64,000 bases of DNA. It comes from an uncultured delta proteobacterium (GTDB taxonomy: Bacteria > Desulfobacterota > RBG-13-43-22). The DNA is taken from contig CAVQFQ010000017.1 in the NCBI GenBank assembly GCA_963711835.1, positions 608,001-672,000 on the forward strand, given 5' to 3'. The notes beneath the pieces were generated by a model that was not told the origin of the DNA, did not search any database, and saw only the letters and a list, made by a program, of their open reading frames with translations. Both the position numbers and the translations under genes were made by a program. Positions 51,659 to 56,432 of this stretch are shown here, piece after piece. Each line of letters begins with the position of its first letter. Position 1 is the first letter of the stretch.

Positions 51659-53435
51659 CTAACCCTCTTTCTTGGGCCGGTCCAAGCCCTTGACGACCTG
51701 GGAGCGGATCAAGCGGGGCAGCATCAAGTGGTGATGAGGACAGATGGATTTGGGATTCTGATAAACGCTGTTGGTAAAAGCCACCAGATACCTACGCAGT
51801 TCTTCGTAGCGCACCACCTCATCCACAAAGCCCCGCTTGGCGCAGTAAATCGGTCGGGACTGGTCATAATACTGCTGAGCCAGGGCATTCATCTTGTCGA
51901 TCACCGGCTGCAAAGGGTTTCCGGAATCTTTCTCTTTCACCAGTCTGCGGGAGAAAGAAGCCGCCGCAGCCGTCTCCCCGTGCATGACATAGATCTCGGT
52001 CGTGGCCGTGCCCAGAGTAAAGGCATTATGGTTGTTGGCCGTGGGGCCCCCCATGACGTAATGGGCTGCAGCCGTACCTTTTCGCAAGACCACCAGCATC
52101 ATGGGCACATCCGTTTGCTCGATGGAGTAGATCAGGGACTGCCCCAGACCGAGCAGTTCCGCTTTCTCGGCAATATCGCCCACATCAATCCCGGAGGTAT
52201 CCTGAAACCAGATGATCGGCACCCGGTCGCGCCCGCACTGGGTGACGAATTCGTTCATTTTGATCAGGCCCTGGCGATAAAGCTTGCCGCCGATCCCGAT
52301 ATATTCGTTGGTATATTCCGGATAATTGGCCCCCAAAAATCCCTGACGGTTGCCGATGACCCCCATCAGGAATCCGTCCACCTTGACCAGGCCGGTATAG
52401 ACCTCGGGCCCATAACCAGGCCGAAACTCCAGGTGCTCGCTGCTATCCACCAGGCGGGCCAGGAAATTGTCGAAGTCGTAAACGGCCTTCTGGTTGAAGG
52501 CCATGATGGAAGGCAGATCGGCCAGGGGATATTTGGGCTCCGCCGGATGGGACACCCGAAAAAAGCGGGGATGGTAAGCCGGCATCTCGGCCATATATTC
52601 CTTTAGGGCCTCCAGGACCTGGGTCTCTTCTTCAAACACAGCCCGGAAAAATCCCGTGGAATCATAATGAATTTTGACGCTTCCCGGAGGGACCTGCTTA
52701 AAGTGGCGCGTGGCCTCAATGATCTGCTCGGCCCCGGCTTCGTCAAAAAAACCTTTGGGGCTCATGCCGCTGACGATCCCCCCTCCGCCCACGGCGATGT
52801 TGCAGTTTTTGTGAGCCAAAAGGATGGTCGGGCTGATGCCCTGATAACCTCCGCCGGCCGGATTGGTTCCATAGATGCCGGCCAAAACCGGGATGCCTAA
52901 TTTCTCCAATTCGGCATGACGGAAAAAGGTGGTGCCGTTGCCCCGGCGGTCGGCATAGACTTCCTGCTGCTCGGTCAGTTTGACGCCGGAACAATTGACC
53001 AGCCAGACCAGAGGTACATGAAGCCGCTTGGCCAGGTCCGTCACCCGGAGTTGATTCTCCGACTGGCCGGCGATCCAGGCCCCGGCTATGACCTTGTTGT
53101 CAAATCCGATCAGGACGCACCACTTGCCGCTGATCCTGGCCAGTCCGTCAATGACACCGGTAGTGCCCTCTTCATTATCCCTGGGGTTGTATAAGGTATG
53201 CAGGGGACAAAAAGTGCCCGGGATCCACCAGATACTCGATTCGATCCCAAATGGTCATCTCGCCCCGTTGGCGAATTTTATCAGCCGGCAGTCCGGCCTT
53301 TTTGACACGCTCCACCTCGGCCTCGACTTCCTTCATAACCGCTTCGATCTGGGCCCGGTTTTCGGCCATCTTTTCCATTTGGGCCGGTTTGAGCGGTTTA
53401 CCCAGATCATCCATCTTTTCAAAATAAGATCGCAT
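51659..53435 (-). CDS. gcdA: Glutaconyl-CoA decarboxylase alpha (carboxyltransferase) subunit, frameshift near 53218
   Basis: MRSYFEKM..., GTNPAGGGY, GGKLYRQGLIKM, HGETAAAA; removing one G at DPG/TFCPL restores a single ORF. Confidence 0.88.
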
Positions 53436-53454
53436 GCCTTCTCCTTCCTGAATT

Positions 53455-53546
53455 ATGAGCTCATAGCTCAAAGCTGTTAGCTGATAGTAAAATAAATTCT
53501 CATTTCGCTGTTTGCTATAGGCGTTGCGCTATCAGCTATCAGCTTC
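53455..53546. repeat. Heptamer (GCTGATA-type) tandem repeats arranged as an imperfect palindrome
   Basis: GCTCATA GCTCAAA GCTGTTA GCTGATA ... GCTATCA GCTATCA GCT; similar run at about 30962-30980. Confidence 0.6.
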
Positions 53547-53550
53547 TGGG

Positions 53551-54714
53551 TTATTTATTGGCCTTGCGGATGCCCAGTTGATCCTGGGCGATGATCCATT
53601 TACAGATATTAGCCGATCCTTCCACCATAAAATAGGTCGGGGCATCGCGGTAATACCGGGCCACCGGATATTCCGTGGAATAGCCGTAGGCACCCAGGAT
53701 GCGCATGGCATAATTAGCGGCTTTGGAGGCAACTTCGCCGGCCAGGTATTTGGCCATGGCCACTTCCAGGTTGTTGTTCAGGTTGCCTTTGTCCTTCTGC
53801 CAGGCCGCCTTATAGACCAGCAAACGGGCGGCCTCGATTTCAACCACCAGTTGGCCCACCAGGTCCTGATTCATCTGAAAGGTGCCGATCGGCTTGCCGA
53901 ACTGTTCCCGTTCGTTGCAGTATTTGGTAATCGAATCCAGACAGGCCTGGGCCAACCCGACTCCTCCGGCAGCAGCCGACAGGCGGGTCTGGTTCAGGGA
54001 CCCGAAGACGATCTTGGCCCCGTCACCCGGCTTTCCCAGGATATTGCCCTTGGGTACCCGGGTGTCTTCCAGATAGAGTTCACCGGTCGGGGAAGAACGG
54101 GAGCCCATCTTATCCAGGTCCGTGGTGGAAATGCCGTTAAAGTTCCTGGGCTCGATTACAAAAGCGGAGAGGCCTTTGCCGCCGGCCGAACGATCGGTGA
54201 AGGCATAGTAAATCAGGACCTGGGCGATGCTGGCATTGGAGATCCAGGTCTTGGACCCGTTCAGAAGCCAATGATCCCCTTTGTCCTCGGCCTGGGATTT
54301 CAGGGCCATGACATCCGATCCGGCATTGGGTTCGGTAATGCCGAAACCGCCCAAATAGTCCCCGTTGACCAGCTTGGGAATATATTTCCTTTTTAATTCT
54401 TCGCTGCCGTAGCGGAAGATGGTGAAGGCGCAGCCCAGGGCCTCCATATTAATCTGAACTCTCAAAGAACTGGAGGCCCGGGCGATCTCTTCGGTAATGA
54501 TCATGGCCGCCGTCCAGCCCATGTTGTTGCCGCCGTATTCTTCCGGGATGACGGTGCCGAAAAAGCCCAACTCGGCCATGGGTTTGATGACCTCCTGGTA
54601 GGGGAAGTAATGTTCCTCATCCCACTTGTCGGCAAAGGGGGCGATTTTTTCGGCCGCAAAATCCCGGACCATGTCCCGAACGGCCTGCAGTTCTTCCGAT
54701 AATTCAAAGTCCAT
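53551..54714 (-). CDS. acd: Glutaryl-CoA dehydrogenase (non-decarboxylating type)
   Basis: ACAD fold with ASSSLRVQINM, GFGITEPNAGSD, MVEGSANICK; directly upstream of gcdA. Confidence 0.85.
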   Translation of the reverse strand: MDFELSEELQAVRDMVRDFAAEKIAPFADKWDEEHYFPYQEVIKPMAELGFFGTVIPEEYGGNNMGWTAAMIITEEIARASSSLRVQINMEALGCAFTIFRYGSEELKRKYIPKLVNGDYLGGFGITEPNAGSDVMALKSQAEDKGDHWLLNGSKTWISNASIAQVLIYYAFTDRSAGGKGLSAFVIEPRNFNGISTTDLDKMGSRSSPTGELYLEDTRVPKGNILGKPGDGAKIVFGSLNQTRLSAAAGGVGLAQACLDSITKYCNEREQFGKPIGTFQMNQDLVGQLVVEIEAARLLVYKAAWQKDKGNLNNNLEVAMAKYLAGEVASKAANYAMRILGAYGYSTEYPVARYYRDAPTYFMVEGSANICKWIIAQDQLGIRKANK

Positions 54715-54770
54715 GAAATAACCTCCTATTTACTCATTAACAATTATTTTTGATTTTCTTATAAAAAAAC

Positions 54771-54842
54771 CGTCATTCCCGCGCAAGCGGGAATCCAGAT
54801 CATTCTATCAAATGCCTTGATTCCCATCTTCATGGGAATGAC
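54771..54842. repeat. Empty inverted doublet of ATTCCC-N8-GGGAAT (dRS3/CGTC-type REP) palindromes
   Basis: CGTCATTCCCGCGCAAGCGGGAATCCAGA (54771-54799) and inverted ATTCCCATCTTCATGGGAATGAC (54820-54842). Confidence 0.85.
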
Positions 54843-54886
54843 TTATATGCTGGCCGGGTAACAAGTAGTGAGATTTTCAAGTAACC

Positions 54887-55242
54887 CGTCATTCCCGCGA
54901 AGGCGGGAATCCAGAGATTTATGTACAGACTTTATCATACAAGTCGATCCACTCCGGATTACTTTTTTCTATTAATTTCAATTTCCATCCCCGGTTCCAT
55001 TTCTTTAATTGTTTTTCCCTGATAATGGCTGTTTCCGGCGACGGATGCTCTTCAAACCAGACTAATTGGTGAACCTTATATTTCTTGGTAAATCCTTCAA
55101 CTAAGTCGTTTTTATGTTCATATATTCTTTTAACCAAGTCGGAAGTCACTCCAATATATAATGTTCCATTTCGCTTACTGCAAAGAATATATACATAAAA
55201 TGGTTTCATTTTTTCTGGATTCCCGCTTGCGCGGGAATGACG
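54887..55242. mobile_element. GIY-YIG nuclease cassette bounded by inverted REP palindromes
   Basis: CGTCATTCCCGCGAAGGCGGGAATCCAGA (54887-54915) and TCTGGATTCCCGCTTGCGCGGGAATGACG (55214-55242) tightly flank an AT-rich gene. Confidence 0.75.
54919..55209 (-). CDS. Stand-alone GIY-YIG nuclease
   Basis: YVYIL...LYIGVT.DL.KR.YEH, REKQLKKW.R.WK, NPEW.DL. Confidence 0.92.
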   Translation of the reverse strand: MKPFYVYILCSKRNGTLYIGVTSDLVKRIYEHKNDLVEGFTKKYKVHQLVWFEEHPSPETAIIREKQLKKWNRGWKLKLIEKSNPEWIDLYDKVCT

Positions 55243-55277
55243 TTTTTATATGAATCCCTATTCTCAATTTGGGCCTG

Positions 55278-56432
55278 TCAATCCAAAATGATATTCTTTG
55301 AGACGATCATCCGCTGGATCTGGTTGCTCCCGTCAAAGATCTGGACCGCCTTGGCATCGCGCATCATCCGCTCCACCGGCGACCCCTTCAGATAGCCGGC
55401 CCCGCCGAAGATTTGAACGGCATCGACGGTGACCTGCATGGCCACATCCGAGGCCTGACACTTGCACATGGAGACCAGGGTCTCGAGGTCATGGAAGGTC
55501 CCTTCCCTGGAATCGATCAGGGCCGCCGTCCGGAAAATCAGGGACTTGACGGCCTCGATGGCCATCTTCATGTCGGCCAGCATGAAACGGATCGCCTGGA
55601 ACGAGGCGATCCGCCGTTTAAACTGGGTTCGGGTCCTGGCAAAATTCAAGGCCGCCTCATAGGCCCCTTCGGCGATACCCAGGGCCAGTGAGGCCGCGCC
55701 CCAGACCCGCATGACATTGGCATGCCGGGAAAGAACCTTCCAGCCTTCCCCTTCTTTCAGGAGGAGATTCTCCCGGGGGATGCGGGCATTCTGGAAAAAC
55801 ATTTCGGAAGTCACCGATCCGCCCAGGCCCATTTTCCTTTCCTTTTTCCCGAAGGACAAGCCGGGTGTCTCCCGGGGAACGATCAAAGCGCTGACCCCGG
55901 CGGTCCGCTTGCCAGGACCGGTTCGGACAAAGACCAGATAAAAATGGGCATGGGGGCCCAGAGTAATATAGCTCTTGGTGCCGTTTACAATATAGGTCCC
56001 TTCTTCCAGGACGGCCCTGGTCTGCAGGGAACCGGCATCAGACCCATAATTGGGTTCCGTCAGACAGAAGCCGCAGAGTTTATCGCCGGCGGCCATAGCC
56101 GAAAAAAATCGTTTTTTCTGCTCCTCGGTCCCTACCTCCCGGATGGTCCGGATAACGGCCTGGGTCGGGAAGACCAGCAGGGCCGAGGCCGCCGAGGCCT
56201 TGGAGATCTCTTCGATAACCAGGCAGAGGGTGGTGGCATCGGCTTCCTTTCCTCCGAATTCCATCGGCAGGGAAAGCTTCAGCAGTCCGGCCTCCTTAAA
56301 GGCCTGGTAACTGCTTTCGGGGAACTCATCCCGGGCATCAATCTCCACCGCCCGGGGGGTGATGGCTGAAGCCACCAGGCTCCGGACCTTCTCCCGGACT
56401 TCCCGTTGAGAGGCCGTCAAATGGAGAAACAT
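55278..56432 (-). CDS. Acyl-CoA dehydrogenase
   Basis: CLTEPNYGSD, GTKSYIT, QIFGGAGY, QIFDGSNQIQ. Confidence 0.93.
   Translation of the reverse strand: MFLHLTASQREVREKVRSLVASAITPRAVEIDARDEFPESSYQAFKEAGLLKLSLPMEFGGKEADATTLCLVIEEISKASAASALLVFPTQAVIRTIREVGTEEQKKRFFSAMAAGDKLCGFCLTEPNYGSDAGSLQTRAVLEEGTYIVNGTKSYITLGPHAHFYLVFVRTGPGKRTAGVSALIVPRETPGLSFGKKERKMGLGGSVTSEMFFQNARIPRENLLLKEGEGWKVLSRHANVMRVWGAASLALGIAEGAYEAALNFARTRTQFKRRIASFQAIRFMLADMKMAIEAVKSLIFRTAALIDSREGTFHDLETLVSMCKCQASDVAMQVTVDAVQIFGGAGYLKGSPVERMMRDAKAVQIFDGSNQIQRMIVSKNIILD

Follow-up and report, generated by a model that had tools for sequence, protein, structure and literature searches.

A gene of the Ssn nuclease family (ssn), with its own NTS hairpins on both sides, lies in the window (the whole 64-kb stretch of DNA analysed here) at an ACAD-acd junction where relatives have no such gene; it was probably inserted there horizontally, and its product is predicted to cut hairpin ssDNA as SsnA does. 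Both the pairing of hairpin and nuclease and the idea of a mobile element are already in print, and the locus is a further example of the Ssn/NTS system, homologues of whose nuclease have been catalogued in the thousands, sulfate reducers among them (PMC11893778). With so many known, a single locus matters little; this one serves as a test case for the spread of CGTC/dRS3 repeats, in that it combines an intact low-copy cassette, an empty junction in relatives, and a genome in which no transformation channel was found. Neither the empty junction nor the duplicated cassette pair described below (L019/L020) was found in Chenal et al. 2025 (PMC11893778), from whose main text the terms “empty” and “target site” are absent. 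A literature search, with most subscription journals outside its reach, found no follow-up on Ssn mobility. The features of the locus are as follows.

53551-54714, minus strand: acd, glutaryl-CoA dehydrogenase gene, downstream neighbour outside the element (NF045552, 761.7 bits against a cut-off of 470)
54771-54798, plus strand: first arm of a gene-less dimer, identical as a 28-mer to the NTS hairpin that precedes ssn (0 mismatches to NTS; 34-nt inverted match to 55214-55247)
54816-54843, minus strand: second, divergent arm of the dimer, with stem ATTCCCAT/ATGGGAAT (6 mismatches to NTS; perfect 8-bp stem)
54887-54914, plus strand (28-mer; the 29-mer is 54887-54915): NTS hairpin downstream of ssn, inverted relative to the upstream one (0 mismatches to NTS; z -3.7)
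54919-55209, minus strand: ssn, GIY-YIG nuclease gene assigned to the Ssn (SsnA) family (96 aa, single domain; PF01541 E 3.6e-19)
55215-55242, minus strand (28-mer; the 29-mer is 55214-55242): NTS hairpin upstream of ssn (0 mismatches to NTS; CGTC tag outward)
55278-56432, minus strand: ACAD, acyl-CoA dehydrogenase gene, upstream neighbour outside the element (Pfam Acyl-CoA_dh domains; adjoins acd in 12 of 12 relatives)

The NTS is defined as CGTCATTCCCGCGMAVGCGGGAATCYRG (Chenal et al. 2025, PMC11893778), and three of the four hairpins at the locus are exact copies of it, the fourth (54816-54843) having six mismatches, while the core ATTCCC-N8-GGGAAT is present in all four. Its looser form, ATTCCC-N6-12-GGGAAT, occurs four times in the 64-kb window, each time at this locus (shuffled sequences average 0.16 copies, with 0 of 100 reaching four). 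The three near-identical hairpins have 8-bp stems, 4-nt loops and z scores of -3.7 to -4.6 (the one upstream of ssn folds at -9.0 kcal/mol, z -4.3), and the fourth is weaker (z -2.0). An exact NTS with the tag G and the post-stem C intact thus stands on both sides of the gene. The hairpins equally have the makeup of CGTC-1 REPs, or dRS3 (PMC3733652), namely, a CGTC or TGTC tag, an 8-bp stem with outer AT pairs, a 4-nt loop, and a CCA tail; the fourth copy has the tag AGTC and the tail CAA. Counted as 29-mers, they leave 3 nt between hairpin and stop codon and 4 nt between hairpin and ATG (the upstream 28-mer is 5 nt from the ATG), and an earlier note on this DNA, which had described a 96-aa AT-rich GIY-YIG gene inside inverted 29-bp palindromes with gaps of 3 to 4 bp, was accurate on this point, including its coordinates. 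Genome-wide, a loose SRM pattern yields 48 matches, many of them nonpalindromic, and a structural rule yields 67 against about 27 expected, for which reason single hairpins were not tallied as copies.

PF01541 spans residues 4 to 76 of the 96-aa window protein and is its sole Pfam match. As a proxy for the Neisseria meningitidis SsnA, we took an N. gonorrhoeae orthologue (L143), picked because both ssnA qPCR primers match it with 0 mismatches; the window protein is identical to it at 58 of 86 positions (67%; pairwise E of 2e-44, database E of 7e-33), which, by way of this proxy, lies within the bounds for Ssn homology (E<1e-10, >75% coverage, and at least 60% identity to Neisseria SsnA). SsnA is a 94-aa GIY-YIG protein that binds and cuts the NTS solely as forward-strand ssDNA and in which Y6, Y17, and E64 are essential (PMC11893778). 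From the context of the published mutagenesis primers and the L143 alignment, these residues correspond to Y7, Y18, and E65 of the window protein, positions that are 99 to 100% conserved across the 98 other rows of a homologue alignment in which 99 of 104 translations were retained by length. The locus therefore resembles SsnA/NTS (Ssn family, cd10448; PMC11893778) in its single GIY-YIG domain of about 95 aa, its Y/Y/E residues, its 67% identity to the Neisseria orthologue, its exact NTS hairpins on both sides, and its NTS-ssnA-NTS layout, and, judged by sequence, it almost certainly belongs to the Ssn family. Binding and cleavage of ssDNA hairpins have been demonstrated for four homologues (PMC11893778), so the proposal that a GIY-YIG enzyme rather than a RAYT is tied to dRS3/CGTC hairpins was correct and already has published biochemistry behind it; by analogy, the window protein is very likely to cut the hairpins that flank its own gene.

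The nearest homologues, among the matches listed, are 70 to 74% identical and come from several phyla; a quick homologue tree, in which 5 of 95 forks are well supported, names no donor. A search of solved structures matched only 1zg2 (UPF0213; E of 7e-4). Phage carriage found no support, with 0 matches to the window protein in 50,697 phage records; viral contigs held one ssn locus and no match to the ssnA primer sequence. In the N. gonorrhoeae strain used as the proxy, the ssnA frame (L143, 574-873) has no in-frame start codon, and its record of 2.17 Mb, though of chromosome size, carries a plasmid label.

The association of gene and hairpin extends across the family. In the published survey, the motif occurs in the flanks of 71% of Ssn homologues and on both sides in 42% (PMC11893778). 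We surveyed the best 80 of at least 563 confirmed relatives (at least 599 candidates), of which 77 loci had at least 100 nt on each side, calling hairpins by the SRM pattern together with our own stem rule. Within this set, a hairpin lies within 100 nt of the gene at 69 of the 77 loci (background, 39 of 2,147 windows), in line with the flank check proposed in the earlier note, and hairpins occupy both sides at 43 of 77, facing inward as in the window at 36 of those 43.

The unit lies in a gene run for fatty-acid and glutarate breakdown, and its neighbours include, beyond ACAD and acd, a thiolase and a gcdA-like carboxyl transferase, a gene content that suggests an anaerobe; the sequencing runs that hold the locus are mostly labelled sediment metagenome. 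(The carboxyl transferase gene, at 51659-53471 on the minus strand, is split into open reading frames of 98 and 461 aa; relatives match it in two frames offset by a single base, which suggests that a frameshift or an assembly error lies near 53200.) An acd orthologue of 87 to 90% identity is present in 12 of 20 genomes of the same family, and in all 12, ACAD lies directly upstream of it, across 14 to 295 nt of intergenic sequence versus 566 nt in the window. Neither an ssn match nor a hairpin occurs at the ACAD-acd junction of any of these 12 genomes, all of which are of other genera, such that the insertion point is not fixed to the base. The view that the unit interrupts an ACAD-acd-gcdA run is thereby borne out, the junction being contiguous without it in 12 of 12 relatives. 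The gene is also AT rich (GC of 0.34 and GC3 of 0.36, compared with 0.56 to 0.59 and 0.71 to 0.74 for acd and ACAD), and on the strength of this composition, the empty junctions, and the spread of the nearest homologues listed over several phyla, the unit likely arrived by horizontal insertion. Elsewhere in the family, ssn is patchy and occupies other sites: Ssn matches occur in 11 of the 20 genomes, and across 110 ssn loci, close matches to the neighbours of the window gene were seen at the window locus only, with distant ones at two others.

Once there, the unit appears stable. Contigs of two runs (X1 and X2) cover the locus from end to end with even depth and come from strains whose flanking genes differ by about 3%, the link from gene to ACAD being a 30-nt overlap within the hairpin rather than a formal bridge. 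Differences between strains are fewer in ssn than in the flanks (3/339 versus 76/2370, p = 0.014; 2/357 versus 74/2491, p = 0.004; gap positions in the X2 contig number 23, and the two runs are possibly nonindependent), which fits selection or a recent sweep. No flank-to-flank joint of the kind that an empty allele would give was present among the joints listed (15 of 43 and 15 of 36; 8 of 23 runs). The listed joints that skip ssn connect one hairpin with another; their sides are short and their spacers unrelated, so that they look like dimers belonging to other organisms. Three further runs (X6, X7, and X13) cover acd, and two of them (X6 and X13) ACAD as well, but not the body of ssn, with no contig bridging the site in the 58 to 73% of these runs' sequence that was read; one X7 contig diverges 13 nt upstream of acd.

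How such a unit might move can be considered from the chemistry published for SsnA. The 20-nt product of a labelled oligonucleotide (PMC11893778) places the cut, we infer, 4 nt to the 5' side of the CGTC tag. The window protein would bind the NTS hairpin in ssDNA and cut at about the same distance, that is, at approximately 54882/54883 on the plus strand and 55246/55247 on the minus strand. Because the tags face outward on opposite strands, these predicted cuts bracket ssn, one per strand. The cassette would then most likely behave as a selfish unit, its nicks setting off repair or recombination by the host, through which DNA bounded by hairpins, whether it carries the gene or is a gene-less dimer, would be copied into new AT-rich intergenic sites, with no strand transfer by Ssn itself. 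GIY-YIG nucleases are hydrolytic and are not known to have a strand-joining step or a covalent intermediate. The arrangement recalls RAYT (TnpA-REP) with its REP/REPIN/BIME repeats and the IS200/IS605 elements, in which a small enzyme gene likewise sits between the ssDNA hairpins that its product recognises and gene-less doublets occur elsewhere. It departs from them in that the window enzyme is a GIY-YIG protein (only PF01541) whereas theirs is an HUH tyrosine transposase, in that its tag is CGTC and not GTAG, and in that its two recognition hairpins are on opposite strands; only one of the two hairpins is cleavable on any single strand, in contrast to the ends of IS200/IS605, making IS200/IS605-type excision a poor fit. 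This one-hairpin-per-strand geometry, together with the hydrolytic chemistry, leads us to favour nick-initiated host copying over transposase activity.

Nuclease-driven spread of the unit is plausible, at somewhat less than an even chance. Somewhat less likely again, the hairpin-ssn-hairpin unit, about 350 to 400 bp long, may be mobile and autonomous, driven by a GIY-YIG enzyme that also spreads gene-less CGTC dimers, with ends that coincide with the tags or fall 4 nt beyond them, where SsnA cuts. Were this the case, CGTC REPs would have in Ssn the mobiliser that has been missing, and if mobility does depend on the nuclease, the unit would rank as an autonomous element of very small size whose enzyme is not of the HUH type. 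Published work has compared NTS-ssnA-NTS to an insertion sequence, as a hypothetical mobile element (PMC11893778).

The best sign of a defined unit comes from another genome, in which two 406-nt cassettes (L019/L020; 2411-2816) differ by one mismatch, lie 4.4 kb apart on one contig, and have unrelated flanks. On the right, their identity runs up to the tag and no further, and on the left it continues for 4 nt past the tag; this 4-nt extension equals the inferred SsnA cut distance, and four shared pyrimidines can be chance. Among 37 homologue pairs of at least 85% identity, this is the one pair with clean borders at both tags. No target-site duplication was seen at the window locus or at L019/L020. 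The source genome itself contains a second cassette (L112, C17:344764-345120), about 70% identical, with a GTG start and its own hairpin variant ATTCCGGC/GCCGGAAT on both sides. As the two cassettes are only about 70% identical and are not grouped together in the poorly resolved quick tree, we see no recent copying within this genome. Around the second cassette, a further inverted motif forms a wider frame, CTAACTTA...TAAGTTAG, and related outer motifs are found at four loci in relatives (L122, L125, L133, and L136).

Beside the gene-bearing pair, at a distance of 43 nt, is the gene-less inward pair (54771-54843), whose arms are separated by a 17-nt spacer. The earlier note had seen here the same inverted pair about 45 bp away with a spacer of roughly 20 bp: a pair is indeed present at about that distance and spacing, but it is not the same one, as its second arm has the six NTS mismatches, with compensatory changes in the stem, while its GTC tag and post-stem C are retained. 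Gene-less inward dimers number 11 in the genome, with spacers of 9 to 39 nt and unequal arms in every case, and the window dimer is a member of this class. Dimers with short spacers are also frequent in CGTC-1 families, although in those families homodimers predominate, with exceptions (PMC3733652). The 17-nt spacer contains no remnant of the ssn gene ends. The proposed autonomous/nonautonomous pair, with the neighbour as its empty copy, is not supported, given a spacer unrelated to the gene ends, a differing second arm, and 10 other dimers in the genome; the dimer as a deletion derivative of the cassette, or as its target site, is ruled out likewise, being 1 of 11 dimers with unrelated spacers and having a divergent second arm. 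Five of the dimers (C15:49344, C17:363990, C17:370430, C21:303457, and C5:270593) are nested in a larger inverted frame, GATGGATTCGTAAAAAGTC...GACTTTTTACGA. A large genome-wide family of outer CTAACTT...AAGTTAG motifs was also considered, and counts gave it no support.

The alternative that fares best, unlikely as we judge it, is that cassette and dimers are passive passengers, moved by a RAYT/HUH or IS transposase, by a phage recombinase, or when hairpins recombine with one another, while Ssn only cuts. The genome does contain 11 Y1_Tnp matches over the cut-off, some relatives are rich in repeats with no Ssn match, and GIY-YIG chemistry is not known to include a joining step. Yet none of the 11 Y1_Tnp open reading frames is flanked on both sides by such hairpins (the nearest hairpin is 720 nt away and the rest at least 2 kb), no HUH Y1 transposase lies between the hairpins at the locus, and the 96-aa window protein has no Y1_Tnp match. 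Among the best 80 of at least 563 relatives, moreover, the hairpins lie a few bases from the ssn start and stop codons across phyla. For dRS3, a role as phage recombinase target is mentioned by Chenal et al. (PMC11893778); for CGTC REPs, Di Nocera et al. 2013 (PMC3733652), in whose main text “GIY” is absent, found no dedicated transposase. Repeat numbers bear on both readings. Among 40 relatives, the median number of dRS3-core repeats is 12 in those with a core Ssn match (n = 11) and 1 in those without (n = 29), kin not being independent. In two of the relatives that lack an Ssn match at an E of 1e-10, the repeats number 46 and 55. Three genomes of one genus in the same family (G011, G013, and G017; genus g4) have 160 to 251 dRS3-core repeats, against 0 to 55 in other family members, which is a lineage-specific expansion.

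It is less probable again that the gene has been domesticated for a host function as in N. meningitidis, where SsnA restricts incoming NTS-bearing ssDNA and modulates transformation, a demonstrated role (PMC11893778) that might here extend to defence against foreign DNA. Other organisms in the same samples are rich in NTS-type hairpins, and the lower divergence of ssn than of its flanks, described above, is in keeping with such a role. Against this, the genome, which is 89% complete, yields no match to ComEC and none over the cut-off to DprA (controls were positive in 10 of 14), and the lack of a ComEC match weakens a Neisseria-like transformation role; the patchy occurrence of ssn in the family, at other sites, counts against it as well. 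The genome has only 9 dRS3-core copies, unlike the hundreds in pathogenic Neisseria (PMC11893778), and it further differs from the Neisseria SsnA/NTS system in harbouring two divergent cassettes and in that the window unit sits in a metabolic gene run with its empty state seen in relatives.

That the hairpins are RNA elements regulating the ACAD-acd-gcdA transcript, as terminator or stabiliser, with the nuclease incidental, is highly improbable: a terminator-like hairpin with a T-rich tail does lie on the minus strand (54794-54775), ahead of the acd start by about 60 nt, but that tail begins 4 to 5 nt past the stem, terminator-like sites number two where shuffled sequences give 0.8 ± 1.0, the hairpins are absent in 12 of 12 relatives, and SsnA has no action on RNA (PMC11893778).

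Under the preferred reading, a selfish cassette with its own nuclease, expression of ssn is likely low and would come by read-through of the thiolase-ACAD transcript. No sigma-70-like promoter was found in 54650-55400, and in an RNA run (X4), coverage extends over parts of both host genes, acd and ACAD, but over little of ssn (contigs only, half of the run read). The upstream hairpin contains GGGA in the 3' arm of its stem, 11 nt before the ssn ATG. A Shine-Dalgarno sequence is absent between hairpin and ATG, as the earlier note had observed, taking it to suggest tightly limited expression, but a reading of this lack as a special control is rejected, as it is usual: among the best 80 of at least 563 relatives, 49 homologues have an inward upstream hairpin, of which 17 have no more than 6 nt between it and the start codon and only 6 have a Shine-Dalgarno-like 4-mer there.

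Two features of the downstream flanks of homologues may be added. At two loci (L167 and L173), the cassette stops, by eye, about 12 nt before a sequence resembling the start of a tRNA gene, and at six others (L149, L003, L193, L204, L217, and L223), tandem arrays of a half hairpin (…GCGGGAATGACA repeated, with short spacers) lie just outside the downstream hairpin.
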